64,000 bases of DNA from an uncultured Candidatus Saccharibacteria bacterium (GCA_964497565.1 CAZCCP010000006.1:1449-65448); one strand, 5' to 3'. Positions 1,212 to 56,715 are shown, numbered from the stretch's first letter. The notes: generated by a model from the letters alone, not told the origin. A program made the numbers and translations.

Positions 1212-1320
1212 AACAAATGACTCGGGCTTGATTTAAAAAAGTAAAACCCCGGCCCAGACGAGTCATAGCTATTGTACCAAATTGCTTAGCTAGATTACCA
1301 CTTTACTCGTGGCTATGATG

Positions 1321-1349
1321 TTGTAATATGTGTATTTTAATTATATAAT
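1321..1349 (+). promoter_or_regulatory. Sigma70-type promoter for the first high-GC membrane-protein unit
   Basis: TTGTAA (1321-1326), a 17-nt spacer, then TATAAT (1344-1349). It sits in an AT-rich stretch immediately before GC-rich DNA. Confidence 0.5.
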
Positions 1350-1435
1350 ATGCTAGTTCTCCACTCCGTGGACCTCAGAACATTCACATTGCAGAGTGGA
1401 AGTGCTTTGGCACTACCCCTCAGGAAGGAATTCCG

Positions 1436-2032
1436 ATGACCGTCATGCCGCCGCCCGCATGGGCGATGGTTGCCGCCGCGCTTGTGATGCTCTTCAGCAT
1501 CGCGTCAGCAACGGTAATGCGCAGCCAGCACAGCACGGACGCCAGCTATTCCCGCCTCTACAGCTTCGTGCTGTCAGGCTTCGGCGGGCTGAACCTCGGT
1601 CTCCTGCTGGCGATGCAACTGGCCTACAAGCCGGGCTTCACCTACGCCGCGGAGCACCCGAAGATCATCTTCGGCTACATCGTCGGCGAGTGGGTCGTGA
1701 TCATCTGCGCCCTATGCAACTCGTTCAGGAACTACGGCGTGTTCACGCTGAAGCCCATCTCGATGGAGCTGTTCCTGAACGGCATGGCGTGCTGCTACCT
1801 GTTCGCACTCGCGTGCAACCAGCTGGCCGCGATCGCAAGCAGCCCCAACGGCGGCCACGAGGCCCTGAAACTGGGAGCGTTCGTCTTCGGGATGACCAGC
1901 GTCGCCGCGATCATGACCCTCGCCAGCTACCTGTCCACCTGGACCGAAAGCCGTTTCAACTCGCCCGCCCCCGCGGACGGCAAGACGGCTCAGTCCAACA
2001 CGGCCAAGCCCAACACGAGCAAGGAGCTCTAA
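1436..2032 (+). CDS. High-GC 5-TM membrane protein (cassette protein A), unknown family
   Basis: ORF track, 198 aa. RBS AGGAAGGA lies 6-7 nt upstream of the ATG. Codon third positions are strongly G/C (ACC GTC ATG CCG CCG CCC ...). Five hydrophobic segments. Overlapping ORFs in other frames look like high-GC shadows. Confidence 0.8.
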   Translation: MTVMPPPAWAMVAAALVMLFSIASATVMRSQHSTDASYSRLYSFVLSGFGGLNLGLLLAMQLAYKPGFTYAAEHPKIIFGYIVGEWVVIICALCNSFRNYGVFTLKPISMELFLNGMACCYLFALACNQLAAIASSPNGGHEALKLGAFVFGMTSVAAIMTLASYLSTWTESRFNSPAPADGKTAQSNTAKPNTSKEL

Positions 2033-2545
2033 ATGCACCTCGACCTCCAGAAGGCCAACGTGGCAGCGCTGCTGACACTCATGCTCATCGGCATCATCCA
2101 CTACGTCATCCTGACGCGGCGGATCGGAAGCAACAAGGTCGACAACGGCTACGGCGTCCGCCTGTTCCTGGTACTCATCAGCCTGGCACTCCTGGACGCC
2201 AACGGCTGGACGATCACCAAGTGGCTGTTCGCCCTGTTCAGCGCGTGCTACTGCGTGGCAACCTTCGGTAAGTTCGTCCGGACTTTCGCCGAGAAGTACA
2301 CACTGGATGCCGCGTTCGAACTGTCGACGACCTTCCTGCTGTTCACCACAGCAACGCTGCTCCTGCAGGTCGCTGTGCACGGCAAGTCCACCGGCTTCAT
2401 CCACGGCATCAACGTCGTCCTGCTGGTGATCGACGCGGCCACGCTCGTGATGGCCCTCATGGTCACCGCCCTGAGCGTCCGTCGCTACACCACCATGTCG
2501 GACATCTACGTGCCCACCCCGGCGGGTAAGCCCCCCATGTTCTAG
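2033..2545 (+). CDS. High-GC 5-TM membrane protein (cassette protein B), translationally coupled to A
   Basis: ORF track, 170 aa. The ATG directly abuts the TAA stop of A (TAAATG). The RBS AAGGAG is embedded in the last codons of A (K-E-L). GC-rich third positions; five hydrophobic segments. Confidence 0.8.
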   Translation: MHLDLQKANVAALLTLMLIGIIHYVILTRRIGSNKVDNGYGVRLFLVLISLALLDANGWTITKWLFALFSACYCVATFGKFVRTFAEKYTLDAAFELSTTFLLFTTATLLLQVAVHGKSTGFIHGINVVLLVIDAATLVMALMVTALSVRRYTTMSDIYVPTPAGKPPMF

Positions 2546-2568
2546 CCCTCGCGGCTGCCTCTACGTAC

Positions 2569-2622
2569 GGTGGGCGCGGGGGGGGGGGGGACTCGGGCTC
2601 ACCCCCCCCCCGCCGCACCACC
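2569..2622 (+). repeat. Inverted homopolymer hairpin: GGTGGGCGC-G13, loop, C10-GCCGCACCACC
   Basis: G run at 2578-2590 (13 nt) and C run at 2602-2611 (10 nt), separated by ACTCGGGCTCA. Flanking bases are also partly complementary. Confidence 0.7.
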
Positions 2623-2653
2623 AAACCACTCTGCAATATCAATCACGTATACG

Positions 2654-2680
2654 CCCCACCTGAGAAAGTGGGGATTTTTA
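2654..2680 (+). terminator. Intrinsic terminator of the A-B unit
   Basis: CCCCAC (2654-2659), loop CTGAGAAA, GTGGGG (2668-2673), followed by ATTTTTA. Confidence 0.6.
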
Positions 2681-2691
2681 GTTCTCACCCC

Positions 2692-2727
2692 TGATAAATA
2701 TTGTGTAAATGTGTATAATATTATAAA
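2692..2727 (+). promoter_or_regulatory. Promoter region for the second membrane-protein unit (exact hexamers ambiguous)
   Basis: TGATAA, 16 nt, then TGTATAAT (TATAAT at 2714-2719). A second TATAAA lies at 2722-2727. AT-rich block between two GC-rich blocks. Confidence 0.35.
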
Positions 2728-2811
2728 ATATGCGCGTATCTTTGCGGCCTTCGCAGAGCGTACCTCGACAACAGAGTGGTTCTCACAAGGAAACCACAGG
2801 AATGAGCAGCA

Positions 2812-3354
2812 ATGCCGCTCACCACAATCGTCGCAGCCAGTGTGCTGGGACTCTTTGCCCTGCTGATCGGCCTGTTCGGCAACAGCTTGGACGAAGACGA
2901 GAACGACTTCTACCGCGGCATCATGTTCGCAGTGGCAGCCGGTGCTGGTTGGATTGTCTTCTGTCTGAGCCACCCGGCTGGGCACATGGAAGATCTCCGC
3001 TACATTGGCGACCACACGGCGCTGGCAATATTCTTCGTTCTCATCGCCAAGGCGGTCTTCGACATCCTCTTCGAGGGTATGAAGGCTCAGCTACGCGATG
3101 TACTCGAAGTTGTCGGCATCTGTGCCCTCATCGGCTCCGTCGGTATGAAAGCCAGAGAAGTAGCCGCTCACGGGGCTCAGCCCAACCTTCACGCAGCCAA
3201 CATCTGGCTCATGATCGCCGGCTACCTGTGCCTCCTGGCGCTCATCATCGGCAGTGTCCTCAAGGGGAGCTGGCGTACGACGACCGCTGAGAGTGACACC
3301 AAAATCCCGAACGGACCACGGCACCGCGCACCCCGCGGACGCAAACACCCCTGA
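2812..3354 (+). CDS. High-GC 5-TM membrane protein (cassette protein C)
   Basis: ORF track, 180 aa. GC-rich third positions. Five hydrophobic segments and a basic C-terminal tail (PRHRAPRGRKHP). Confidence 0.8.
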   Translation: MPLTTIVAASVLGLFALLIGLFGNSLDEDENDFYRGIMFAVAAGAGWIVFCLSHPAGHMEDLRYIGDHTALAIFFVLIAKAVFDILFEGMKAQLRDVLEVVGICALIGSVGMKAREVAAHGAQPNLHAANIWLMIAGYLCLLALIIGSVLKGSWRTTTAESDTKIPNGPRHRAPRGRKHP

Positions 3355-3378
3355 CGTACCGAAAGGACGCGATTCCCA

Positions 3379-3972
3379 ATGACCGCTCTCGCCGTCGCCA
3401 TCGCGCTGTTTCTGACCATCGCCACACCCCAGTTCGTGATGCGCAACCGCGCACGCGACAACAGCAGCATGCCGTACATCGTCGTCGCAGCCGTCTTCAC
3501 CGCAAACGCCCTCTTCGCCACCATCTACCTGAGCATGCCTGGCATGTTCACGGGGCGACTGAGCAGCATCGGAGATGGGATCCTGATGACTGGCATCGCG
3601 TACGCAGCAGCCAAGGCTCTGGCGACCAAGACGGCAGCCCTCACTGACAAGCTGGAGATCTCCCTGGTCATCAGCGGCGCCATCGCGACCGCATCCAGGG
3701 CGTACAGCCTGCACTACACGGGCGCGAACAACCACTTCAATCTGTGGTACTGCGTCTCGGGCGCGACCTTCATCGTGCTGACGACCATCCTCCTGGTGGC
3801 CATCAAGCGCGACAACGACAAGCTCGAAGCCACACTGGCCCAGGCCCGTCGTGACCAAGCGTCCCGCCACCAAGCTCCCATGGAGGAGTGCACCACCGAC
3901 CCGGACCACTGGCTCAAGTATCACGCCCCCAACCCCGGTCCCATCGACCCGCGGTACAAGAAGGAGCTCTGA
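3379..3972 (+). CDS. High-GC 5-TM membrane protein (cassette protein D)
   Basis: ORF track, 197 aa. RBS-like GAAAGGA upstream. Ends in AAGGAGCTCTGA (..KKEL*), almost identical to the 3' end of A (AAGGAGCTCTAA). Confidence 0.8.
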   Translation: MTALAVAIALFLTIATPQFVMRNRARDNSSMPYIVVAAVFTANALFATIYLSMPGMFTGRLSSIGDGILMTGIAYAAAKALATKTAALTDKLEISLVISGAIATASRAYSLHYTGANNHFNLWYCVSGATFIVLTTILLVAIKRDNDKLEATLAQARRDQASRHQAPMEECTTDPDHWLKYHAPNPGPIDPRYKKEL

Positions 3973-4005
3973 ACCAACCGGCCGTCTGGCCTACCTGGAG
4001 TAGAA

Positions 4006-4059
4006 CGCGCGTTCGCGCGGCGGATCCTGGCATCAGCCATCCGTCCGCGCGAACTGCGC
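4006..4059 (+). other. Long GC-rich stem-loop downstream of protein D
   Basis: CGCGCGTTCGCGCGG (4006-4020) pairs with CCGCGCGAACTGCGC (4045-4059) with one bulge. The loop is about 24 nt. Confidence 0.6.
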
Positions 4060-4109
4060 CGCTCCTCTTCAAAAAACCACTCTGTTGTCCTCAAACCCTC
4101 GTCTTATTC

Positions 4110-4141
4110 AAAAGAGCCCCCTGCGTTGGGGGCTCTTTTTA
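4110..4141. terminator. Bidirectional intrinsic terminator shared by the C-D unit (+) and the helicase gene (-)
   Basis: AAAAGAGCCCCC, loop TGCGTT, GGGGGCTCTTTTT. A-run on one side and T-run on the other. It overlaps the helicase stop codon. Confidence 0.7.
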
Positions 4142-6388
4142 TTGCTCGACTTTGGTAATTGGTGCAAAACCTATATTGAGCTTCTTGGCACCTTTGCCCT
4201 TGAAATAAATGGTAGCGTTATCGCCGTCCATCTCCATGACTTGTCCTAACCCAAAGACTGCGTGCTTAACAGCATCACCCTCATACAGCTCGGGGACGTA
4301 GCGCGGTTCATCGTTGTCTACAACAGGGATGTCTTCCGGTTCGGCAGTCGATTCCATTTTGCGAAAACCTTGGCCAAAACCAGACTTCCCCTGGTTACCG
4401 TAGACGCCAGCATCTGGCTGGAAATCGGCGTCAACTTCACTCAAAAAACGTGACGGAGGATTTTGCTGCACTGCGCCGAAAAGCATGCGGCTCACGGTGT
4501 AAAGCATGTAGAGCTCTTCGCGAGCGCGGGTCATGCCGACGTAACAGAGGCGGCGCTCTTCTTCCATCGACGCTTCGTCGTACAGCGAGCGAGAAGTTGG
4601 GAACACCGTTTCTTCCATTCCCACCATAAATACGGCTGGAAATTCCAGACCCTTAGCAGCATGAAGTGTCATGAGCGTAACAGCATTGCCCTCAAAATCA
4701 GCCTGATCAACATCACTCACGAGACTTACTTCCTCAAGAAAAACGTCCAGACCTTCGTCTGTATAATTCTGGGCAACACCGACGAGCTCCTTGACGTTTT
4801 CCGCCTTGGATTCACCGGCAGGAGTACCGTCATTGACGTAGTTTATGTAGTCGAGGCGACGAACGATGCTGTCGATAATGCCGGCAGGCGGTGTGTCTTC
4901 CATGAGGTCGCGAAATGTCGACAGCATCTCACCAAGCTCGCTGAGGCCACGAATAGCGCGATCGGTCAGCATGTCACAATCTTCGACCTGACTCAGTGCC
5001 TGGAACAACGTATATTTGTTGGCCTGCTTCCACAAGAAGAAGTTCTCTACAGACTTCGCGCCCACACCGCGAGTTGGCACGTTGACGACACGCTGGAAAC
5101 TTACGCGATCTTCGGGCTGGTATATAAGACGAACGTACGCCATGAGATCTTTGATTTCTTTGCGGTCGTAGAAACGCTGGCCACCAACGATGCGGTACGG
5201 AATTCCATAATGGATAAATGTTTCTTCGACCATGCGACTTTGAGCGTTGGTACGGTACAGGACGGCGAAGTGGCTATACTTGCGAACACCACTGTCGACG
5301 CCATTACGGATACGGCGAACAATTGCGTCGCCTTCGGCACGTTCGTTAGCCACCTGCAACATCTGCACAGCCAAGCCTTCACCAGACGCCGTCCACAGTT
5401 TCTTGTCGGATCGCTGCTTATTCTTGGTGATAATCGTGTGTGCAGCATCCAAAATCGCTTTTGTACTACGATAATTTTGCTCAAGTTTGATAACCGTCGC
5501 TTGCGGGTAGTCTTTTTCGAAATTCAAAATGTTGCGGAAATCGGCACCGCGCCAGCTGTAAATGCTCTGCCAGTCATCGCCTACTACCGCAATGTTATTG
5601 CTGGCGTTGGTCATCATGCGCACGAGCTTATACTGCGCTGCATTTGTATCTTGGTATTCGTCAATCATAATGTAGCGGAATCGCTTCTGCCACTTCTTGC
5701 GTACTGTTTCTTGGGTGCTCATCATGCGCACCGTTGCGCTAATAAGATCATCAAAGTCTAGTGCGGCTGCTTCACGAAGCGACTGTTCATACAACGGATA
5801 CACTTGCGCCGCTGTTCGTTCTGCCGGGCTAGACTCGTTATTGGCAAATTCCTCAGGACTCATCAGGTCGTTTTTGGCGTTACTTATCATGCTGCCAATG
5901 ACTTTAGCTGGGAATGTCTTCTCGTCGATTGCCAACTGTTTGCATGCTTGTTTTACGGCTGACATGCGATCGGACTCGTCAAAGATGACGAAGCTCTTCG
6001 GAATACCAATGCTTTCACCATCCTGTCGTAAAATACGTACACAAATAGAGTGGAACGTACCCATGTAGGGCATGAAACTTCGGTTATCAGGGTCTTCACC
6101 AAGCAAGTGTGCGACGCGCTCACGCATTTCACGGGCGGCTTTGTTGGTAAACGTCACTGCCAAGATATTAAACGGCGACGCTTTGCGGGTCGAAATAAGA
6201 TACGCGATACGATGGGTTAGTGTTTTGGTTTTGCCAGATCCGGCGCCAGCCTGAATAAGCAGCGGCCCCTCGGTTGTAATAACCGCGCGCTTTTGCTCAT
6301 CGTTGAGCCCCTTAACAAGCTCAGCCTCAGGACCAGTAACAGTACCCGCAGGAACTTCATCGGCCCAGGGGTCAAAAATATCATCCAT
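4139..6388 (-). CDS. pcrA: ATP-dependent DNA helicase, UvrD/PcrA family
   Basis: Walker A AGAGSGKT, DEYQDTN, VGDDWQSIYSWRGA, TLHAAKGLEF, and the C-terminal AVFGLGQV..IYF motif typical of the family. The ORF track starts at a TTG (6418). I prefer the first ATG at 6388 (MDDIFDPW). Confidence 0.92.
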   Translation of the reverse strand: MDDIFDPWADEVPAGTVTGPEAELVKGLNDEQKRAVITTEGPLLIQAGAGSGKTKTLTHRIAYLISTRKASPFNILAVTFTNKAAREMRERVAHLLGEDPDNRSFMPYMGTFHSICVRILRQDGESIGIPKSFVIFDESDRMSAVKQACKQLAIDEKTFPAKVIGSMISNAKNDLMSPEEFANNESSPAERTAAQVYPLYEQSLREAAALDFDDLISATVRMMSTQETVRKKWQKRFRYIMIDEYQDTNAAQYKLVRMMTNASNNIAVVGDDWQSIYSWRGADFRNILNFEKDYPQATVIKLEQNYRSTKAILDAAHTIITKNKQRSDKKLWTASGEGLAVQMLQVANERAEGDAIVRRIRNGVDSGVRKYSHFAVLYRTNAQSRMVEETFIHYGIPYRIVGGQRFYDRKEIKDLMAYVRLIYQPEDRVSFQRVVNVPTRGVGAKSVENFFLWKQANKYTLFQALSQVEDCDMLTDRAIRGLSELGEMLSTFRDLMEDTPPAGIIDSIVRRLDYINYVNDGTPAGESKAENVKELVGVAQNYTDEGLDVFLEEVSLVSDVDQADFEGNAVTLMTLHAAKGLEFPAVFMVGMEETVFPTSRSLYDEASMEEERRLCYVGMTRAREELYMLYTVSRMLFGAVQQNPPSRFLSEVDADFQPDAGVYGNQGKSGFGQGFRKMESTAEPEDIPVVDNDEPRYVPELYEGDAVKHAVFGLGQVMEMDGDNATIYFKGKGAKKLNIGFAPITKVEQ

Positions 6389-11217: not shown

Positions 11218-11440
11218 TTTTATTCTCCAAGAATAGATTTGCTTTTGTTGGATATTATTATGCGCCTGGCATACACATAATGCAAACAGGCGCCTAAAAA
11301 TCGGGGTTGAGGTTGCGGGGGTGTGTTTTGTAAAAATGGCGTTATGCCAAACACACCCTCGCGGGCAGAAATCTCGTTGATGAATCGCCTCAGGCGAGTC
11401 AGCTACGCGATAGTTCTACCACCCCTGTACTTCTTGAGCG

Positions 11441-11788
11441 TCAGCCCTTGCGACGCAGCTTGCGCGCGACGAGGACCACGACGATGACGCCGGCGGCGAC
11501 CAGGCCCTTGTTGCGGTGCTTGCGCACCTTGGTGACGGCCAGCTGGCGCTGCTCGGGGTCCTTGGCGGTGTTGACGACGGCGGTGCCGGCGGTCTTGACC
11601 TTGGAACCCGCGCTGCGGACGGTGTCGCTGGTGGCGACCTTCTTGACCGCGGCGACAGTCGTGTCCTTGGCGGACGCGGCGTAGAGGCCGGCGGTAGAAG
11701 CGGCGGTCTTGACCTTGTCGAGCTTGCTCACGTCGGAAACCTCCGTGGTGTCGGTGCCCTCGGCGCCGTTGAGGATGTTGGCGGTCAT
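11441..11788 (-). CDS. High-GC small tail-anchored protein, Ala/Thr/Lys-rich, unknown function
   Basis: ORF track, 115 aa. RBS AAAGGTAGGTAGG upstream. GC-rich third positions. C-terminal TM (LVAAGVIVVVLVA) followed by RKLRRKG. Confidence 0.7.
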   Translation of the reverse strand: MTANILNGAEGTDTTEVSDVSKLDKVKTAASTAGLYAASAKDTTVAAVKKVATSDTVRSAGSKVKTAGTAVVNTAKDPEQRQLAVTKVRKHRNKGLVAAGVIVVVLVARKLRRKG

Positions 11789-12040
11789 GGTGACCTACCT
11801 ACCTTTACATCGAAGTTACAGGAGCTGAGCATGTTCGCTCGATATTCTCAAACGAAAAATCCACCTAAAAGGTGCATACTCAACGATGTATTAAATACTA
11901 TATGAGCTTAAAAATCAAATACATTAGCCAAAATGTAAAACCAAAAGTCCGCGTTAGGTATCTCGGGGAGAGATAACTATCTCTCTACTTAATACGTACG
12001 CGGACTATTCTGGGCAGTCAGCCGGTGTTTCCGGAGGCTA

Positions 12041-12393: not shown

Positions 12394-12906
12394 CTATTGC
12401 TTGTCAGGGAGAGATTCGACAGCAGCGTGAAACATAGCATTAGTTTTGCGCATAAAGCCGACGATAATCGCCAGTTCTTCGTCATTATATGAGTCAATAA
12501 GTTCGTTGAAAGATTGTTGCAGTGGATCGTACAGTTTGGTAACTTTTTTGCGTGCCTCTACATTATCGATACCACGCACCAAAACACGGCGACGGTCGTT
12601 GGGGTCGGCGTCACGCTGGACGAAACCACGTCGTTCGAGTCGGTCGATCATACCTGTCATGCCACCAGTAGTAATATGGCAGCGCTTAGCTAGCTCGCCT
12701 GCGGTAAACGGACCGTAATCCTGTATGAGGCTCGCGCATTCGAACTCGGCGGCGCTGAGGCCAACATGCTGTGCGATCGCGTGCACCATCAAGACATTGG
12801 TGTTGCCGTTATCCTGTACGGCTTTGTCGAGCTCAGAGATCATCGCCTCACGTTCGGGGCTATCGGATCGTGCTGTATCTAGTATCTTATGTTTTCTTGT
12901 TGACAT
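12394..12906 (-). CDS. MarR-family transcriptional regulator
   Basis: LSAAEFECASLI...TAGELAKRCHITTGGMTGMIDRLERRGFVQRDADPNDRRRVLV is a typical MarR wHTH. It is divergent from an MFS gene. Confidence 0.85.
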   Translation of the reverse strand: MSTRKHKILDTARSDSPEREAMISELDKAVQDNGNTNVLMVHAIAQHVGLSAAEFECASLIQDYGPFTAGELAKRCHITTGGMTGMIDRLERRGFVQRDADPNDRRRVLVRGIDNVEARKKVTKLYDPLQQSFNELIDSYNDEELAIIVGFMRKTNAMFHAAVESLPDKQ

Positions 12907-18536: not shown

Positions 18537-19550
18537 ATGGCTGATCGGGAATCGATAATCAACCCCTTTGAACAAGAGGGGATACTCAACACATTTGACG
18601 AGATACAAGCTGAGTCATTCTTTGCTACGCCAGAACTGCGAAGCGCTTTTTTACGCGACCTTACGTTCGAAGACTATACGAATTTCCTAACACTTATCAA
18701 TGAATCGTTTCAATTTGACGTAAGCGAGGTGCTTGACCCTACGAACACTAGTCAACATATGATCATAAGAAGCGATACAAACCAGGAGACGGGCAAGGTC
18801 CAAGATAAATGGCCGATATACATTGCACCAGGCCATGAACACAGGCCCTTACTACTTAATGAAGCGTTCACCGTCGCACAAGAGTTAGAAGATGTCGAAC
18901 AGGCAGCTACGCTATTGGGGCTATCGCTAAGTATGGTTCATCCTTTTAATGATGGTAACGGCCGTACAAGTAGAATTTTGTATAGCCTACTGACGCATGG
19001 CTATGATGGATCAAGTGCAGATAGACAATATTTTACTGAGCTCAGTAGTCACGAAGGAAGAGAGATAGTCTACTTTTCCCAAGAAGCTGCTAATCTACCT
19101 GGTTTGTTCGTAGGACGCGAGCTACGAACAAAGCAACTTTACGATGAGCCAAAGCAGTTGATCGATTTGCAACCACGAAAAGGCGACAGTTGGAAGTGGA
19201 GAACACGAGAGTTCCTGCTTGGTAAAACAGGCGTTGACCTCATGCTTCAAGAAGGCTACTTTGGCTTACCACTACTCATGGAAAAAGTGAAAGAAGACGG
19301 CCGTCGGCTTCAAGACTGCAGCGCTGTCACAATAAGCGTATCAGGGCAAACAATACAAAGGCTTGACATAGGAGAAGTCTACGCACGACCCAAAGACATA
19401 GACCAGCGTGCAACCACAGCCAGACATACACAACTCAAGCTTGAATATATACGCACTGTCATTGATTGTTTTCGGCCAGAAACACCAGACCCACTAATCA
19501 GTTCCGACGAAATCACTCGTGTATACGCTTCGCCCACAAAGAATGCTTAG
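18537..19550 (+). CDS. Fic/DOC-family protein (putative AMPylase)
   Basis: Canonical Fic motif HPFNDGNGRTSR, matching HxFx(D/E)GNGRxxR. Confidence 0.85.
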   Translation: MADRESIINPFEQEGILNTFDEIQAESFFATPELRSAFLRDLTFEDYTNFLTLINESFQFDVSEVLDPTNTSQHMIIRSDTNQETGKVQDKWPIYIAPGHEHRPLLLNEAFTVAQELEDVEQAATLLGLSLSMVHPFNDGNGRTSRILYSLLTHGYDGSSADRQYFTELSSHEGREIVYFSQEAANLPGLFVGRELRTKQLYDEPKQLIDLQPRKGDSWKWRTREFLLGKTGVDLMLQEGYFGLPLLMEKVKEDGRRLQDCSAVTISVSGQTIQRLDIGEVYARPKDIDQRATTARHTQLKLEYIRTVIDCFRPETPDPLISSDEITRVYASPTKNA

Positions 19551-19803
19551 TACAGGACTGCAGCGTAGTCGATTCTTTTATAAACAAGAAAAAAGCCCCA
19601 AGCGTACGCTTGAGACTCTTTTCTTGGTGAACCTACCCGCCCAGTTTTGGAAGACCTTTTGGCCTAGTCTGGAATTATTGCATGACAACTTAATCATGTT
19701 GGGTGTGTCCGACCACGAACTAATGCTGGAGGGTGGCGCTAATGTTGGCGTGGCTTCGGCTCGTGCATATAGAGAAGGAATCTAGTAGCAGACGGATTCA
19801 ACC

Positions 19804-21105
19804 CTATTTCTTAAGAGACACATTGAGTAGGGCTTTGGCGGTGGCATCTAATAGAAGCTCGAACTTGTTGTAGTCAGCCTTTGTGTCAACTAATGGATGA
19901 AAAAGCACCATAGCGATTTCGCGTTTTTCGTTGTCATAATATTTAATCTCCATTGCATCCCTTGTGAGAATCTCATGGTCTTCGTGCATTCGGACTATAA
20001 ATCGTCCCATCTCTTTTTGTGACTCGACGTATTCGTCGCCAATCAGTATGCGAAACGCGTCCCATTTTTGCATGGCATCAACTTTAGCATTTACTTCAGT
20101 ATCGCTTAGCTTAGCCTTTTTCTCTCTAATGACATTTGTATAACTAGCTTCTGACTCGTGCGCGACATAATTACGCTTTCGTTTTATCCACTTTATCCAC
20201 TTATTCATTGTTAATTCTGAATATAGAGCATAAAGATCATCATTCTTTGTTTTTAACTGCTCCAAGAACTTTTCATGTTCTATGTTAGGACGAACGTCCT
20301 TCCCACTTATACTAAAGAGCTCAGTGAGTAATCTTCCAATGATGTCGAATGAGCCAGAAAATAAGAAGTAGAGGTTGCTAAGATGGTAATTAAGCTCAAA
20401 TGAATAATCGTAAAAACTATCATAACCATAGGAGTCTTTAATCTTGTAGTTACGCTCAGCGTAATGCTTTCTTTGAACTAGAGACAGTATGGTTTCTTCA
20501 CAATACCTTATTTGTATGGCTTTATGTTGCAGGGCTCGGACGAAACTCATGTGCGTATTCGTGTAACCTAGTTCTCTAGGTGCTACGTTATTCAGATTCC
20601 GAAGGTTATCTAGAAGCGGTTTAGTTTCGATATATTTCGAGAACCAAGTCGCGTTCCATACTGGCTGGTTAAAATCCCATGGTACATTCTTTCCTGTTAC
20701 GTATGCTTCTATCTCGTTTTCAAGCTGTGCCGTAGTTTCAGCGTACTGGAACGGTTTACCAGTTTTGTAGAGATCGGCTATAAGTTTTAGATCATCGCTA
20801 TAAATAAGGTCAATATTATTCGAGTGAGCATAACTCAGTATTGGATCTACACCCTTATTGAGATCGTCAAATACGCTGTATCTATACTTTTCTTGGTTAG
20901 AAGCAAGACTTTCAGTGTTCGCAACTCTTATCTCGATTTCAAAATCAGCACCTATGTCGCTAACATAGTGCTTTAATATCTCTAGTTTTTGCATTAAAGA
21001 GTACAAGTAGCTCTCATTAGTATCCAGCAGCATTACTCTAAAAATAGCATTAGGTGCAGGATGTATGTTTAACTCTGGGAAGGTCGTACCATTTATTGTT
21101 GGCAT
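19804..21105 (-). CDS. Hypothetical 433-aa protein with a candidate HEPN Rx4H motif
   Basis: ORF track 19804..21108, which starts at a GTG. The ATG at 21105 follows the RBS GAGGAG. C-terminal region KRKRNYVAHESEAS contains R-x4-H. AT-rich codon usage. Confidence 0.75.
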   Translation of the reverse strand: MPTINGTTFPELNIHPAPNAIFRVMLLDTNESYLYSLMQKLEILKHYVSDIGADFEIEIRVANTESLASNQEKYRYSVFDDLNKGVDPILSYAHSNNIDLIYSDDLKLIADLYKTGKPFQYAETTAQLENEIEAYVTGKNVPWDFNQPVWNATWFSKYIETKPLLDNLRNLNNVAPRELGYTNTHMSFVRALQHKAIQIRYCEETILSLVQRKHYAERNYKIKDSYGYDSFYDYSFELNYHLSNLYFLFSGSFDIIGRLLTELFSISGKDVRPNIEHEKFLEQLKTKNDDLYALYSELTMNKWIKWIKRKRNYVAHESEASYTNVIREKKAKLSDTEVNAKVDAMQKWDAFRILIGDEYVESQKEMGRFIVRMHEDHEILTRDAMEIKYYDNEKREIAMVLFHPLVDTKADYNKFELLLDATAKALLNVSLKK

Positions 21106-21356
21106 CACAACTCCTCTAGATTGGTATTATCGTTTGAATTCTTCGAAGCTCTCACGAGCTGTTTTGAAGATCAACTTCACAATGTTGTAGTGGGGGTCGT
21201 TCTTATCTTCATCGTGCAGATCTGTTATTTTTGATCGCATTCGCTGCGAGAGTTCTTATATGTATATTACATCTCAAAACGCTGCTGCTTGCAATTTCAA
21301 CTCCTCTTAGGCATGCTTAAGAAAAGTAACGTGGTGGGCATGTGAGGGGGTAGCAC

Positions 21357-50181: not shown

Positions 50182-51099
50182 CTATCGGCGAGGCCGACGT
50201 ATCGGGAAGCGCTGCGCGAGATGCAGATCGTTGTCGTGTGATCCGCCAGGTGTGCGGTGCGATTGGTCGAGAACGACCTTCAGCTCGCCGCTGAGCTGCG
50301 GGTGAATGCCGAGGGTGTACATGAAGTGCACCACATCGACCTCCAGTCCCTTGAGCAACTCCAGCGGATCCAGTTCGAAGAGCGTTGAGCTCTCGTAGGT
50401 TGCCGTGACCGCCTGAGCGCGTACAGAACGCACGTCCAGGAAGTACGCCAGCCCGCAGGTAGCCTCAAGGCTGGGAACAAAAGACCGCTGCTGCTTGGTG
50501 ATGCGGACGGTGACCGTCGCCGTACACATGCGTCCCAGCCTGCTGTCATACGGAATACGTACGATGGCATGGCCGGTAGCCTCGTAGATCGGCTTGATCG
50601 CGCTGGAAAGCACGAGGCGTGCTGCCTCCGAGTTGCAGAGCGTCAGACAGTTGTTCTCGATGCAGAGCTGCCAGTCGCCCGCCAGGCCCGGATCTTGCTG
50701 GATCCAGCCGTCGACCAGCTCATTGAGCCGTTGTACGGTGAACGCCTGCTCGGGCCGCAGTACCACGATGTCGTCGTTCATGCTGTTGGTGTCGATGAAG
50801 AGTACGTCTGGCACACTCTTGTCGAACTCCGCCTGAAGCACGCGCAGCGGGATCTCCAGGTTGTACAGAGCCTCCTGGTCAATCGGATGCTCGTCGTCAT
50901 TCGGAAGTACGAAACACAGCCCAGACCTTCGGTCCCAGCTGACGCTCGCGCTGCCCTCCACGATGAGCACCTGCAGTGCCTGCAGCGTTGCGTTGATGCT
51001 GGCTGCCGTAAACGGCACCTCAGCAGGAACGCCAAGGACCAGTCTGTGCTGATCCCGGTTCGGCTGCTCAAGCAGTCCCTCTCCCCTGACGGTTGCCAT
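50182..51099 (-). CDS. High-GC paralog P1 (305 aa), unknown family
   Basis: RBS GAGAGGA upstream. GC-rich third positions (CTG/GAG/ATC/GAC codons). Shares VPFTAASINATLQAL, GLCF and C-terminal LGIHP..ELKVVLD with P2-P4. Confidence 0.8.
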   Translation of the reverse strand: MATVRGEGLLEQPNRDQHRLVLGVPAEVPFTAASINATLQALQVLIVEGSASVSWDRRSGLCFVLPNDDEHPIDQEALYNLEIPLRVLQAEFDKSVPDVLFIDTNSMNDDIVVLRPEQAFTVQRLNELVDGWIQQDPGLAGDWQLCIENNCLTLCNSEAARLVLSSAIKPIYEATGHAIVRIPYDSRLGRMCTATVTVRITKQQRSFVPSLEATCGLAYFLDVRSVRAQAVTATYESSTLFELDPLELLKGLEVDVVHFMYTLGIHPQLSGELKVVLDQSHRTPGGSHDNDLHLAQRFPIRRPRR

Positions 51100-51150
51100 G
51101 GGAATGTCCTCTCAATTGGTCCACGATGTGGAACGGTAGCTGACAAATAT

Positions 51151-51179
51151 ATTATACAATCAAAAAATAATAATCACAA
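51151..51179 (-). promoter_or_regulatory. Promoter of P1
   Basis: On the minus strand: TTGTGA, 17 nt, TATAAT (as TGTATAAT). The surrounding 40 nt are about 15% GC by hand count. Confidence 0.55.
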
Positions 51180-51190
51180 AGGTGTGCTTC

Positions 51191-51247
51191 GGCTGGGTGG
51201 TGTTCGGTAAAGATGGTCGCTATGCAACCGATGAACACCACCCAACC
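51191..51247 (-). other. Long-stem, large-loop hairpin downstream of P2
   Basis: 15-nt arms, GGCTGGGTGGTGTTC and GAACACCACCCAACC on the plus strand, with one G-U position in the minus-strand RNA. 27-nt loop. Confidence 0.6.
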
Positions 51248-51257
51248 CTGGCAACTA

Positions 51258-52169
51258 CTACGACCTGGCGCTTACGGCTCCAGGGAGAAAACTCAACGCT
51301 CGCTGGCTGTCGATGTTGACTCGGAACTCTGTGACATCTGGGTGGTATCCCAGTGCCCGAGCGAAAGCCAGCGACTGCTGCCAGACGATGTTGTCAGTGA
51401 CCAAGTCGGTCATCAGCCCGGTGTACGTAGTGCCCTGAGGCAAACCGATGAGCCGGGCGCGGGCAACTCCTTCAGCAGTCTGTTCGACGCCAACGATGTT
51501 GGGCACGAGTCGTGCTGCATCGAGGTCGAATGACAGGTCGATCCGATAGCCGGGCGTGCCGGTGACCGTGATCCAGATGCGCTCGATGAAGCCCTGGTCG
51601 AGCTCACATGTCACGTCGAGTTTGCAGTGCTTGTAGCGGGGACTGAAGCTGTACCGGAAGTCGCTCATAGACGAGCTGTCGCCGTCTCGCAAGGCGAGGT
51701 AGGGACGTGACATGTCGAACGACAGGTACTTGCTGCTGTGGCCCAGCTGCTCGAAGAGCGACTTAAAGCTCGCTGTTGTCACCGGCTGATCTGGTTCAAG
51801 GATCGCCAAGCACTCATCTCTGCCATATGGCTCACGGGCCGTCAGGAACAGGATGTCCTGCGTTGCTTCCGGCTTGTCATCGACTGCGAAGTCGAAGTCA
51901 AAGGCCTTGAGCTGGCGTCGAACGTCCTGCTCCTCGCGGAAGTAGTGACTGATCCGGAAGTGCAGAGCTGTACCGCCCACAACCGCGAGCTCAGACTTGG
52001 TGAGCACGCTGTCGATAGACGAGTCGCCAGCAAGGTGCTGCCGCAGTCGTTGGAGATCCCGGTACAGTGTACGGGTCGTAAAGACCTCCCTGGGGTCGAT
52101 GTAGATGTAGAAGTGCGAGTGATCGTCGAAAGATGGCATCGACAATACGGGCCGGCGCTTTGGGCGCAT
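51258..52169 (-). CDS. High-GC paralog P2 (303 aa), unknown family
   Basis: The track ORF starts at a TTG (52217) inside the promoter. The ATG at 52169 (MRPKRRP) follows the RBS GAGGGAAG. C-terminal ALGYHPDVTEFRVNID. Confidence 0.8.
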   Translation of the reverse strand: MRPKRRPVLSMPSFDDHSHFYIYIDPREVFTTRTLYRDLQRLRQHLAGDSSIDSVLTKSELAVVGGTALHFRISHYFREEQDVRRQLKAFDFDFAVDDKPEATQDILFLTAREPYGRDECLAILEPDQPVTTASFKSLFEQLGHSSKYLSFDMSRPYLALRDGDSSSMSDFRYSFSPRYKHCKLDVTCELDQGFIERIWITVTGTPGYRIDLSFDLDAARLVPNIVGVEQTAEGVARARLIGLPQGTTYTGLMTDLVTDNIVWQQSLAFARALGYHPDVTEFRVNIDSQRALSFLPGAVSARS

Positions 52170-52205
52170 TCTCTTCCCTCTCGTCGTGTAGTTGACGTGG
52201 GATAT

Positions 52206-52234
52206 ATTATGCAACAAATAAATAATAATTACAA
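52206..52234 (-). promoter_or_regulatory. Promoter of P2
   Basis: On the minus strand: TTGTAA, 17 nt, CATAAT (as TGCATAAT). It is nearly identical to the P1 promoter block over about 45 nt. Confidence 0.55.
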
Positions 52235-52248
52235 AGGTGGTGCTGGCT

Positions 52249-52301
52249 CTTGGGGTACGTTATCTTTGCGATGGAAGTCCATCAGACAAACATACCCCAA
52301 G
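52249..52301 (-). other. Long-stem, large-loop hairpin downstream of P3
   Basis: CTTGGGGTA (52249-52257) pairs with TACCCCAAG (52293-52301). 35-nt loop. Confidence 0.5.
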
Positions 52302-52328
52302 GGCCGTGTCAGCAGCCGAGCACATTGC

Positions 52329-53189
52329 TCAGCTTCGATCGCTCATCGGCGGTGGCTTGTAGAGCAGCTCATGGCTGTCATCGATCCTGATACGGAACTC
52401 CAGGTCACGCGGGTGGTAGCCCAGAGCTTTGGCGAACTTGACCGTGAACTTCCACACCTTAGCGGCGTTGACGAAGTCGGCCATGAAGCCCGGATAGGTC
52501 AGGAGCCAGGGTTGGCCCGCCAGACGTGCGGTGACGGCACTATGCTCCTCCACGACGTCCGCAGCGAAGTTGAGCGCTTTTGCGGCGTCCAGGTTGTAGC
52601 CAATCTGGCCCTCAGCGGCCCGAGTACCCTCGACATGCATGATGATGCGGTCGATGTAGTGGTTGCGGACAGTTGCCACGGCGTAGACGCGAGCCTGCTT
52701 GTAGCGAGGCTTGAGCACCCGGACTGCGTTCTCACCCAGGCGGTCGTGCCAGACCTGACAGACCCAGAGGTACGGCGCATCCGCCTTGATGTACCAGTCC
52801 TCGCCTTGGTCGTTGAGGCCAGCCAGGTAGGTGTTGATCGTCGTTACGCTCAGCGGCTGCTCGGGGTCGATTGCACCGCCACACTGGCCGGCAACGAAGA
52901 GAATCTCCGGAACTTCCGGCACGGCGTCCACTGCATACGTGAACTTGTATGCCATCAGTCGCTCGCGAAGCTCGTCGAGCTCGTCCGGGTTGCCGCCGAA
53001 GCGGAAACACAGACCCTTGTCGGAGCTGGTCTTCAATGCAACCCTGTTGAACTCGAACTCAGCGCGAAGCTTCTCCAGCTGAGCGATCACGCTATTCGGC
53101 GTGAACACCTCGTCCCGGTGCATGTGTACGAGCACCTCTCGGTGGCTGGTACTCACTTCGACAGCAGGCTGTCGGCTTTCAAAGTGCAT
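52329..53189 (-). CDS. High-GC paralog P3 (286 aa), unknown family
   Basis: RBS GGGAGAGG upstream. GC-rich third positions across the whole ORF, checked codon by codon. Contains GLCFRFGGNPDEL and ALGYHPRDLEFRIRID. Confidence 0.8.
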   Translation of the reverse strand: MHFESRQPAVEVSTSHREVLVHMHRDEVFTPNSVIAQLEKLRAEFEFNRVALKTSSDKGLCFRFGGNPDELDELRERLMAYKFTYAVDAVPEVPEILFVAGQCGGAIDPEQPLSVTTINTYLAGLNDQGEDWYIKADAPYLWVCQVWHDRLGENAVRVLKPRYKQARVYAVATVRNHYIDRIIMHVEGTRAAEGQIGYNLDAAKALNFAADVVEEHSAVTARLAGQPWLLTYPGFMADFVNAAKVWKFTVKFAKALGYHPRDLEFRIRIDDSHELLYKPPPMSDRS

Positions 53190-53234
53190 GAACCTCTCCC
53201 TACTCGTTCGTGCGAAGTATAGCTGACAAGACTA

Positions 53235-53263
53235 ATAATATAATGTTCTTCATACATTGGCAA
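53235..53263 (-). promoter_or_regulatory. Promoter of P3
   Basis: On the minus strand: TTGCCA, 17 nt, TATTAT, followed by the TTGTCAGCTA 5'UTR element shared with P1. Confidence 0.45.
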
Positions 53264-53324
53264 CGTAGCTACTCTATCGAAATGACACGAGTATCATCTT
53301 TAAGAACAGCTAGGTTGTGTGTTC

Positions 53325-53380
53325 GGGTCTCCTGGGGTTGTATGTTGATACCATACTGGCATCGCAACCCCGGGAGACCC
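53325..53380 (-). other. Long-stem, large-loop hairpin downstream of P4
   Basis: GGGTCTCCTGGGGTTG (53325-53340) pairs with CAACCCCGGGAGACCC (53365-53380), 15 of 16 positions. 24-nt loop. Confidence 0.6.
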
Positions 53381-53406
53381 TCGCAACTACATGTCATTCA
53401 CCTCTT

Positions 53407-54372
53407 TCAGGCGCGGTCGGACAGGATGTCGAAGTGGTGACTCAGTTCGATGGTCTGGAGGGCGCTGCCGTAATCCAGCGTGATGCTGTACTTCGGCATG
53501 CCGACCACCGGGAAGATGTTCAGGGCCTTGGCCAGTTCGACGCTGAGGGCGTGGACTGCGAAGATGAACTTCCTCGGATCACCGAAGGTGAACAGCTCCG
53601 AACCGGCGGTTTCGACGTGAACCTGGTTGAACTGGTCAACCTCGACGTTTACGACGCCAGCGACGAGCTTCACGCGGCTGAGGTCGAACTCGTGCGGCTC
53701 GATCGGCGAAATGACGCGGATCATGTGGTGGACGGAGGCCAGTTGGTCTTCCTCGTTGTACCCGCAGGAGGCCGTGATGATGCCACAGTACGGGTACTTC
53801 GCGACCACACGGAGTGCCATGGCGCTGTAGTCGATGGCGGTGTCGCGCAGGTCCTCCTGGTCGTCCTCGTCCAGATCGTCGTCGTAGCCGCAGTCCTCGT
53901 CGTCGAGATGCTCCAGCAGGAACGCTCCCCAGCCGACTGATGCCGTCCAGTCTTCCCGCCGTTTAGCGAGCTTTCCGGTGAAGCGGTCGATCAAGTCGAT
54001 GAACATGGCACCGGTGAGCACCTGTAGCGGCTCGATAACGAGCTGCGGGTACTTACTGGTGCAGTCCAGTGACAGGACTTCGAGAGCTTCGCTCGTGACT
54101 TTGCCATCAGCCCTGAGGGACGTCTTGATGTTGGCGGCTCGCTCGAGAACTTCTGGCGACGTTTCGTAGCCGAACCGTACGATCAGCCCGTTGTTCTCAC
54201 CCGAATAACGGATGGACACGTCGTCCAGTTCCTCGTCGGTGAGCTCTTCGATTGTGGCGGTGACGCTGGCGGCCGTAAACGGCATGTCCAGCGGCATCAG
54301 GAATGCCGGGCAGCTTTCGTCGGTGACAAGCTTGCCGCCGAGATCTGCGATTGAGTACACTTCTTCTCCCAT
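53407..54372 (-). CDS. High-GC paralog P4 (321 aa), unknown family, with an acidic insert
   Basis: MPFTAASVTATIEEL, GLIVRF and C-terminal AKALNIFP are homologous to P1-P3. Asp/Glu-rich insert DDEDCGYDDDLDEDDQED. Confidence 0.8.
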   Translation of the reverse strand: MGEEVYSIADLGGKLVTDESCPAFLMPLDMPFTAASVTATIEELTDEELDDVSIRYSGENNGLIVRFGYETSPEVLERAANIKTSLRADGKVTSEALEVLSLDCTSKYPQLVIEPLQVLTGAMFIDLIDRFTGKLAKRREDWTASVGWGAFLLEHLDDEDCGYDDDLDEDDQEDLRDTAIDYSAMALRVVAKYPYCGIITASCGYNEEDQLASVHHMIRVISPIEPHEFDLSRVKLVAGVVNVEVDQFNQVHVETAGSELFTFGDPRKFIFAVHALSVELAKALNIFPVVGMPKYSITLDYGSALQTIELSHHFDILSDRA

Positions 54373-55943: not shown

Positions 55944-56711
55944 ATGCGACCAATCTGGACAGGATCAATTAGTTTCGGGCTCGTAAACATCCCCGTTAAG
56001 ATGTTTAGCGGCGTTCACCCACATGAAGGCCTCGATCTGGATATGCTCCACAAAGAAGACCACGCACCAATCCGTTATGCGCGCATTTGCCGCAAAGATG
56101 GCAAAGAAATTGCATGGGACGACATCGTTAAGGGCTACGAGTACCAGGACGGCGACTATGCCGTGCTTACCGAGGCCGATTTTGACAAAGCAAACCCCAA
56201 GAAAACCCAAACTGTTGATATCCACCAGTTTGTCGATGACAGCGAAATCGACATTCGCTACCTCGAAAAGCCCTATTATCTCGAACCTATTAAGGGTGGC
56301 GAGAAAGCCTACGCACTCTTACGTGCTGCGCTCCAGAAGTCCAACAAGCTAGCACTCGCTCGCTTTGTCATTCACCAGAAGGAACACCTGGGCGTCATTA
56401 AGCCTGTTGGTCGGGCATTAGTGCTCAACCAAATGCGCTTTCCGACTGACCTTCGTGAGCCTACTTCATTAAAATTCCCGACCGATAGTGACCTTACCGA
56501 AAAAGAAATTGAAGTCGCCATGAAGCTCATCAAGCAAGAGACAAAGCACTTTATCCCTGAAGATTTCCATGATACCTATACCGAGGAACTTGAGGAAATT
56601 ATCAAGGCAAAGACTAAGGGCAAAAAACCAGCCCATCACGATAAGGCACCCAAAGACACACCAGCCAGCGACCTCATGGAAGCGCTAAAGGCTAGTCTAA
56701 ACCAGTCATAA
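55944..56711 (+). CDS. ku: Ku protein (non-homologous end joining)
   Basis: MRPIWTGSISFGLVNIPVKMF is the canonical bacterial Ku N-terminus. Basic C-terminal tail. Confidence 0.92.
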   Translation: MRPIWTGSISFGLVNIPVKMFSGVHPHEGLDLDMLHKEDHAPIRYARICRKDGKEIAWDDIVKGYEYQDGDYAVLTEADFDKANPKKTQTVDIHQFVDDSEIDIRYLEKPYYLEPIKGGEKAYALLRAALQKSNKLALARFVIHQKEHLGVIKPVGRALVLNQMRFPTDLREPTSLKFPTDSDLTEKEIEVAMKLIKQETKHFIPEDFHDTYTEELEEIIKAKTKGKKPAHHDKAPKDTPASDLMEALKASLNQS

Positions 56712-56715
56712 CGCT

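Follow-up and report, generated by a model that had tools for sequence, protein, structure and literature searches.

Introduction

In the hbs mRNA of Bacillus subtilis, a 14-bp interaction of the 5' untranslated region (UTR) with the 3' UTR modulates cleavage by RNase Y and hence the stability of the message (Braun, Durand and Condon 2017, PMC5737220). In the icaR mRNA of Staphylococcus aureus, the 3' UTR blocks access to the Shine-Dalgarno sequence and gives rise to a target for RNase III (Ruiz de los Mozos et al. 2013, PMC3868564). Here, we describe complementary UTR arms around two two-gene units, A-B and C-D, which together form a GC-rich island at positions 1290 to 4142 of a 64,000-nucleotide stretch of DNA (the window) from an uncultured Candidatus Saccharibacteria bacterium (GCA_964497565.1). 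The four genes encode small membrane proteins, and two further kinds of gene organization can be compared with theirs. Tandem polytopic immunity proteins, such as S. aureus TsaI, adjoin type VII or polymorphic toxins, and phage morons are independent units of promoter, open reading frame (ORF), and terminator with a deviant composition.

Saccharibacteria are obligate epibionts with tiny genomes. Their hosts attack them with Esx-secreted effectors (PMC13622651). A sequence-only reading of the window had drawn attention to the island on account of its composition and had taken the four proteins for distant paralogs. New beyond that reading are the assignment to Saccharibacteria, the 5'/3' UTR complement that brackets each unit, and a maintained excess of G and C at third codon positions (GC3) for which no donor was found.

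Results

The leader and the 3' UTR of each unit carry complementary arms

In unit 1 (genes A and B), a 5' arm at positions 1382 to 1399 (ATTCACATTGCAGAGTGG) complements a 3' arm at positions 2626 to 2643 (CCACTCTGCAATATCAAT). Both arms are on the plus strand, as are all island features given below unless stated otherwise. The pair contains a perfect 12-nucleotide (nt) core, with ATTGCAGAGTGG at 1388 to 1399 and CCACTCTGCAAT at 2626 to 2637, and extends to 18 nt at 89% complementarity. In unit 2 (genes C and D), the 5' arm at 2767 to 2781 (GACAACAGAGTGGTT) and the 3' arm at 4075 to 4089 (AACCACTCTGTTGTC) match perfectly over 15 nt. Arms are present at equivalent places in the closest relative, L003, whose island consists of two single-gene units, X1 (201 amino acids [aa]) and X2 (209 aa), against four genes in the window; their perfect complements measure 12 and 14 nt, respectively.

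We took the longest exact complement as the test statistic and compared it with shuffled sequences. For each unit, the observed length was reached in at most 1 of 2,000 shuffles (P ≤ 0.0005). As controls, the 110 nt upstream and the 160 nt downstream of 910 ordinary genes from Saccharibacteria loci were searched for complements; only three genes reached at least 12 nt, and the mean longest complement was 7 nt. RNAduplex on whole UTRs was dropped, as it over-extends and left cognate and noncognate pairs unseparated.

Placed in register, the arms of the four units form a helix of 16 pairs in which 86% of the cells are paired, compared to 33 to 52% when the partner is slid. Six of the 16 pairs are altered on both sides across the four units, and the observed score was reached in none of 500 shuffles. 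Both arms fall within the stretch bounded by the predicted -10 element and the predicted terminator, the 3' arm being located between a GC-rich hairpin and the terminator. The 5' arm is found 33 to 42 nt past the predicted transcription start, and 36 nt in unit 1 and 30 nt in unit 2 separate its end from the start codon.

Because the leader arm perfectly complements the 3' arm, a full-length mRNA can close into a panhandle, and judging from sequence we think that the arms probably do close the mRNA of each unit in this way. The helix was recovered in both the minimum-free-energy and the centroid fold of the 1,417-nt unit 2 transcript, as well as in the minimum-free-energy folds of unit 1, X1, and X2. 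Together with the hairpins of the leader and the GC-rich body, such a clamp could yield a long-lived, RNase-protected message or could gate decay and translation, on the model of B. subtilis hbs.

Both units run from a promoter-like site to a predicted terminator

The island is indeed made up of two units, A-B and C-D, each of which extends from a predicted promoter to a predicted terminator and has a GC-rich 3' hairpin, as previously proposed. Each is predicted to begin with a sigma-70-type promoter close to consensus and a structured leader, which are followed by two GC3-rich ORFs, a GC-rich 3' hairpin, and an intrinsic terminator. A consensus scan returned 5 promoter-like sites, while 1.3 were expected. 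The site of unit 1 (1321 to 1349) reads TTGTAA-17-TATAAT, and its -10 region, ATTATATAAT, is kept in L003. The TTGnnn-TATAAT pattern that had been attributed to both units thus fits unit 1 but not unit 2, where the site at 2691 to 2719 has CTGATA as its -35 element (CTGATA-17-TATAAT) together with a TG extension (TGTATAATAT). The sequence TRTATAATAT occurs four times in the 64 kb, compared to 0.2 times by chance, and every occurrence precedes a GC-rich unit, two being in the island and two in an array of genes for soluble proteins at 50 to 54 kb.

As read from alignments, three leader hairpins show matched changes between the window and L003. The 5'-proximal hairpin of unit 1 (1359 to 1373, CCAC-tcc-GTGG) has a compensatory counterpart, CCTGC-gct-GCAGG, at the same place in L003, and so does the second one (1400 to 1414), with AGTGC-tttg-GCACT in the window and ATGCT-cgagt-AGCAT in L003. 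The local hairpin of unit 2 (2776 to 2797, GTGGTT..AAACCAC), which corresponds to GTGGAT..ATCCAC in L003, again with compensatory changes, overlaps the 5' arm. Since GTGG is common to both structures, this hairpin and the long-range helix are mutually exclusive and would compete.

Downstream of the genes, the GC-rich 3' hairpin of unit 1 (2569 to 2622) contains tracts of G13 and C10, and its 3' half, GGCTCAC..CCCGCCGC, is kept in L003. These homopolymers (2573 to 2613) are prone to slippage and assembly error. A terminator-like hairpin follows at 2654 to 2679, with its stem-loop at 2654 to 2673 ahead of a T run. The GC-rich 3' hairpin of unit 2 (4010 to 4059, GTTCGCGCGG..CCGCGCGAAC) is likewise kept in L003, and the palindromic terminator at 4110 to 4140 (AAAAGAGCCCCC..GGGGGCTCTTTT, core at 4118 to 4132), which has no assigned strand, is common to unit 2 and the convergent uvrD/pcrA helicase gene. 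The two units are clear duplicates, and the duplicated part takes in the promoter and the terminator outside the arms.

The four ORFs are strongly enriched in G and C at third codon positions

All four ORFs are present at the coordinates and in the frames initially assigned to them. ORF A (1436 to 2032) encodes 198 aa with a GC3 of 0.905 and ends in KEL, and ORF B (2033 to 2545), the start codon of which abuts the stop codon of A, encodes 170 aa with a GC3 of 0.906. ORF C (2812 to 3354) encodes 180 aa with a GC3 of 0.735, and ORF D (3379 to 3972) encodes 197 aa with a GC3 of 0.859. The GC contents at codon positions 1, 2, and 3 are 0.52, 0.48, and 0.91 in A; 0.56, 0.39, and 0.91 in B; 0.63, 0.44, and 0.74 in C; and 0.56, 0.48, and 0.86 in D, a pattern that marks these as the true coding frames. 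Third positions are thus mostly G or C, with a GC3 of 0.73 to 0.91 in A to D compared to about 0.5 elsewhere. Overlapping long ORFs at 1396 to 2271, 1712 to 2404, 2730 to 3290, and 3091 to 3924 were rejected as genes; since their GC peak falls at codon position 1, they are artifacts of GC richness. The GC values counted by hand in the sequence-only reading proved exact (0.667 for 1441 to 1500 and 0.433 for 4141 to 4200), and the contrast persisted in a computed profile, with 0.613 in the island and 0.498 in the rest of the window.

Of the 10 substitutions in the ORFs that separate the strains L002 and L003, 9 are at codon position 3, which is good evidence for translation of the ORFs and for purifying selection within the species. 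The Shine-Dalgarno sequence of B, AAGGAG, is provided by the last codons of A. A, D, and X2 all close with AAGGAGCTCT and a stop codon (window 2021 to 2033 and 3961 to 3973; L003 about 12438 to 12450), a conservation at the nucleotide level despite a protein identity that does not exceed 30%. In A, this sequence coincides with the Shine-Dalgarno sequence of B, while no ORF follows downstream in D and X2.

The GC3 excess outlasts near-saturating synonymous divergence

At 4-fold degenerate sites, the window and L003 are only 0.37 identical in uvrD and 0.48 in the pyruvate kinase gene, which is near saturation. The island genes nevertheless keep a GC content of 0.71 to 0.96 at these sites in both genomes. 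We therefore regard the high GC3 as a maintained property, due to selection or a persistent bias, and not as the fading trace of a recent transfer. It forms part of the explanation that we favor, in which the island is a lineage-restricted accessory locus of the Saccharibacteria chromosome made up of duplicated units (A-B and C-D), each self-contained in its expression and with an mRNA that the arms can close into a panhandle. As a whole, this explanation has in our opinion an even chance of being right.

The strongest competitor is plain horizontal transfer, namely, recent uptake from high-GC Actinobacteria or from their phages or plasmids, with a GC content that has not ameliorated and repeats that are incidental. 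Saccharibacteria live on Actinobacteria (PMC13622651), and a GC3 of 0.73 to 0.91 with C-rich third positions resembles that of actinobacterial genes. GC3-rich ORFs are scattered over other Saccharibacteria loci as well, and another gene holds the site in the more distant relative L004. However, no donor homologue was found outside the clade in the protein, phage, plasmid, and viral collections searched: exhaustively with D among 1.84 billion representatives, with A and C among 5.8 billion proteins, with A and B (the latter left out of the billion-scale searches) in phage and plasmid records, and with the C/D family in viral contigs. Since the core 4-fold sites are near saturation, amelioration would be expected by now, yet the orthologous units of two species have a GC3 of 0.7 to 0.96 despite a core 4-fold identity of 0.37 to 0.48. 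Furthermore, the promoters, leaders, and 3' UTRs look native and are kept between species, and integrases, transposases, and recombinases, or any other mobility genes, are lacking among the large ORFs of the window. The persistence of the excess beyond near saturation and the failure to find a donor both argue against recent transfer, which we consider unlikely. If the excess does survive synonymous saturation without a donor, this would call for caution against reading every compositional island as a recent transfer.

The arms are better explained by a role in RNA than in DNA

The arms could also act at the DNA level, as recombination sites or terminal repeats of an invertible or exchangeable cassette under a fixed promoter. 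They are perfect inverted repeats around the ORFs, and, as would be expected of a recombinase site, their core, CAGAGTGG, is found in all four units. The ORF content between the arms varies, with A-B in the window and X1 alone in L003, and constraint on DNA is compatible with the absence of G-U pairs. On the other hand, none of the large ORFs in the window encodes a recombinase, integrase, or transposase, no target-site duplications were read from the sequence, and the four assemblies (window, L001, L002, and L003) agree in orientation. The promoter and the terminator belong to the duplicated unit although they lie outside the arms, and homology between the window and L003 reaches inward beyond the arms, taking in the second leader hairpin and the GC-rich 3' hairpin, so that the arms are not cassette boundaries. 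Finally, matched arm changes between units are more easily explained by pairing than by a single site-specific protein. We judge a DNA-level element to be very unlikely and favor a role of the arms in RNA, because the duplicated unit exceeds the arms, homology continues inside them, duplications and recombinases were not found, and the orientation is constant. Integron cassettes were rejected too: each unit has its own promoter, no integrase is found among the large ORFs of the window, and the arms are paired around units rather than being single sites.

Least probable of all is that the island is an ordinary fast-evolving accessory locus, with a GC3 raised by GC-biased gene conversion at a recombination hotspot and a complement that is a functionless by-product of duplication: gene number and sequence do vary between close relatives, the two units are clearly duplicated, and Saccharibacteria are naturally competent, but duplication leaves unexplained why the arms change in step in each unit and show further matched changes in the other species, the usual effects of biased conversion fall far short of a rise in GC3 from about 0.5 to about 0.9, and the UTRs beside the ORFs are not GC enriched.

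Several points weigh against the panhandle that we favor and the significance we attach to it. The transcript starts and 3' ends are predictions only, and the covariation comes from four units, as each of two species has a pair of paralogous units, which amounts to few independent events. One cell in 64 is U-G, and with almost no G-U pairs the pair type does not tell RNA pairing from DNA inverted repeats. A protein might bind the invariant 8-nt core, CAGAGTGG/CCACTCTG, and minimum-free-energy folds of long RNAs tend to pair the ends anyway. The clamp is not general either: the units of the soluble array and other GC3-rich genes of Saccharibacteria have complements of only 6 to 9 nt, within the range of the control set, and the clamp was dropped as a trait of all GC3-rich units on these grounds. 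Family and fold searches were empty and tie the proteins to no function, and that selection for a structured, nuclease-resistant message causes the high GC3 is a conjecture.

The island encodes fast-diverging, probably five-helix membrane proteins

In agreement with the sequence-only reading, each of the proteins A to D (170 to 198 aa) has five hydrophobic segments, an N terminus of 3 to 10 residues, and a polar tail of 26 to 55 residues. The four proteins share one architecture with X1 and X2, in which lysine and arginine are concentrated in alternate loops and in the C-terminal tail. This bias points to an N-out, C-in topology for all six, and A to D look like small N-out, C-in five-helix membrane proteins. 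AlphaFold2 modeled D from three sequences as five long helices with low confidence (predicted local distance difference test score [pLDDT] of 53), and the model was not used for a fold search.

Homology among the four proteins could be established for C and D only. They are related to each other (Smith-Waterman z = 8), and both match X2, C with 37.5% identity over the 152 residues of the membrane part (E = 4e-34) and D with 30% identity over its full length (E = 1e-16). Since X2 bridges the two, C and D are paralogs. X2 is C-like in the membrane part and D-like in the tail, where it has the motif CTTDxDHWLxxHAPxPGP..KEL in common with D. In contrast, A and B, which had been counted among the paralogs, showed no demonstrable homology, and no match was obtained for A, B, or X1 by BLAST, phmmer, or hhalign. 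Against the C/D/X2 profile, the hhalign scores of A, B, and X1 were no better than those of reversed-sequence controls. Pairwise Smith-Waterman comparisons gave hints (z = 3.9 for B-X1, 3.5 for B-C, and 2.9 for A-C) that are unconvincing for membrane proteins. What the A-B unit shares with the other one is its architecture and its scaffold, i.e., the promoter, the arm core CAGAGTGG/CCACTCTG, and the AAGGAGCTCT-stop context, but not protein sequence.

Searches of Pfam, NCBIfam, PHROGs, and PADLOC gave nothing above noise for A to D, X1, the soluble proteins of the array, or the 115-aa protein described below. A word-index search of 5.8 billion proteins returned only the queries themselves for A and for C (B was not searched in this way); it is insensitive here, since it missed X2 with C as the query. 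The exhaustive search with D returned X2 alone, apart from two low-complexity repetitive proteins that were disregarded. Neither A nor B matched phage or plasmid records, and the C/D family had no match in viral contigs. When viral sequences were scanned with both protein families and with the sequence of the conserved 3' hairpin, the only matches were chance ones in phage genes of high GC content, which were rejected. A to D thus belong to no described family.

The island proteins diverge between species far faster than core proteins: C and D are 33 to 37% identical to X2, compared to 86 to 88% for the products of uvrD and the pyruvate kinase gene.

The island is restricted to close relatives

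The window is part of a Candidatus Saccharibacteria (TM7) chromosome, as the best relatives of its UvrD/PcrA helicase are found in metagenome-assembled genomes of Saccharibacteria, L003 being the closest at 88% amino acid identity. The island is flanked by uvrD/pcrA on one side and by an rpfB-like gene on the minus strand on the other; the latter label stands for transglycosylase-type features seen in the translation alone, without a family search. Genes for triosephosphate isomerase and phosphoglycerate kinase lie on the same side as uvrD/pcrA, and the context is chromosomal. The island is syntenic, between the same two genes, in L003 and in L002, a 98%-identical strain fragment, and an independent assembly (L001) is identical to positions 492 to 2051 of the window. 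The pair of arm motifs did not occur in about 160 further loci from genome and metagenome scans, the island being found only in the closest relatives. In L004, the helicase of which is 78% identical, the interval between uvrD and the rpfB-like gene holds a 153-aa ORF (L004 12243 to 12704) in place of the island; it is NUDIX-like by eye, without a family search. A metagenome scan with the C terminus of the helicase found no close relative, the best match being 73% identical. Each of the window proteins is the sole member of its own 90% cluster, and Rfam detected two tRNAs and nothing else in the window.

Other GC3-rich units occur in the window and in related genomes

The array at 50182 to 54372 on the minus strand comprises genes for four paralogous soluble proteins of 286 to 321 aa, with a GC3 of 0.74 to 0.81. 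Its members are true paralogs (E = 1e-33 for S2-S3), and every gene comes with a separate promoter and a 3' hairpin, the stem of which measures 15 to 17 nt. The island had been said to follow the same grammar as this array. The promoter motif, the GC3 excess, and the long 3' hairpins are indeed shared, but the array has one promoter per gene and no significant 5'/3' complement. That island and array both have four genes is a coincidence, as relatives hold two membrane genes (L003) and three soluble genes (L163). In L163, the three array copies are found in the same context, between MarR/MFS and Ku/LigD genes. The GC3 excess persists between species here too: the soluble orthologs of the window and L163 are 43 to 45% identical, compared to 78% for the adjacent MFS transporter, and for the soluble family against L163 the GC content at 4-fold sites is 0.65 to 0.80 versus 0.35 to 0.41. 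An AlphaFold2 model of the soluble family (pLDDT of 70) had no match in PDB, with a best E value of 0.4, and no family match was found. A pair of Ku and LigD end-joining genes (55944 to 59226, plus strand) adjoins the array, and the same arrangement is seen in L163.

A third GC-rich unit lies on the minus strand at 11441 to 11788, with UTRs spanning about 11290 to 11900. The 115-aa product has a C-terminal membrane anchor; the GC3 of its gene is 0.94, and a long 3' hairpin comes after it. In L003, the ortholog at the corresponding position (1222 to 1587) was undetectable by tblastn, while the 3' UTR is conserved. The unit has a bulged 5'/3' helix, formed by CUCCUGUAaCUUC with GAAGUACAGGGG, with one compensatory change in L003.

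In L007, a more distant Saccharibacterium (helicase 69% identical), positions 1190 to 2130 contain an ORF for a 215-aa soluble protein with a GC3 of 0.97. Upstream of the ORF are TTGCAT-17-TATAAT(AT) and a long hairpin in the leader, and downstream of it are a GC hairpin and a terminator; a long 5'/3' complement is absent. GC3-rich ORFs were also seen in L028, L031, L037, and L058. A low-GC stretch at about 18.5 to 22 kb of the window (GC content of 0.38 to 0.41) carries, at 18537 to 21108, a Fic-domain gene (18537 to 19550) and a Cthe_2314-like HEPN gene (19804 to 21108), and may be a second, AT-rich accessory island.

Discussion

Variable and strongly signaled accessory genes kept by Saccharibacteria likely bear on their dealings with hosts and phages. 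The sequence-only reading had named immunity, exclusion, or holin-like functions for the island proteins. A holin-like function is unlikely, given five segments, 170 to 198 aa, a chromosomal context without a prophage, and no PHROG or phage match. A role in toxin immunity would suit the paralogy of C and D, the copy number of four as opposed to two in L003, and the identity of 33 to 37% against 86 to 88% for core proteins, although A and B are not demonstrably related. However, Pfam, NCBIfam, and PADLOC gave no match, and no toxin gene is nearby, the neighbors being the rpfB-like gene and uvrD. With low confidence, we suggest that the proteins serve the cell envelope in conflicts between the epibiont and either phages or its actinobacterial hosts, a function of the immunity or exclusion type being our best guess. 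The guess of envelope protection is based on fast divergence, variable gene number, membrane location, and the Esx attack by the hosts.

A bolder proposal, which we regard as rather improbable, is that some Saccharibacteria possess dedicated expression units for fast-evolving envelope proteins, in which a selected GC3 of about 90% and the 5'/3' UTR clamp provide durable messages for host conflict. If this were true, such messages would serve, for example, in protection against the Esx effectors of the host. The pairing of the UTRs is directly testable, as some Saccharibacteria are now genetically tractable. If real, it would be a clear natural case of end-to-end mRNA pairing with covariation beyond the two Firmicute examples, and in duplicated units.

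With regard to known systems, the island resembles phage morons in having self-contained units that run from promoter to terminator and a composition sharply unlike that of the flanks. Unlike morons, it is not located in a prophage, has core chromosomal neighbors, and lacks any PHROG, phage, or viral-contig match. Similarly, it has in common with TsaI-type arrays small multi-pass proteins encoded in tandem, a variable copy number, and fast divergence between close relatives, but it differs from them in that no toxin gene is nearby, no sequence or profile similarity to an immunity family was found, and paralogy can be demonstrated for only two of the four proteins.

At the RNA level, pairing between the two UTRs of one transcript occurs in icaR and is predicted for the island. 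The island arms, however, lie 20 to 35 nt upstream of the Shine-Dalgarno sequences and do not cover the Shine-Dalgarno-like GGAAGGA or AGGAA. Since the arms leave the Shine-Dalgarno sequence uncovered, icaR-type control does not fit.

The closest precedent is hbs. In both systems, a long-range duplex of about 14 bp joins the leader to the 3' UTR upstream of the terminator, and the leader is highly structured. The hbs message is short, monocistronic, and codes for a nucleoid protein, whereas the duplex of the island, predicted from sequence, would close two-gene messages of 1.2 to 1.3 kb and recurs in two paralogous units of two species, around genes for membrane proteins.

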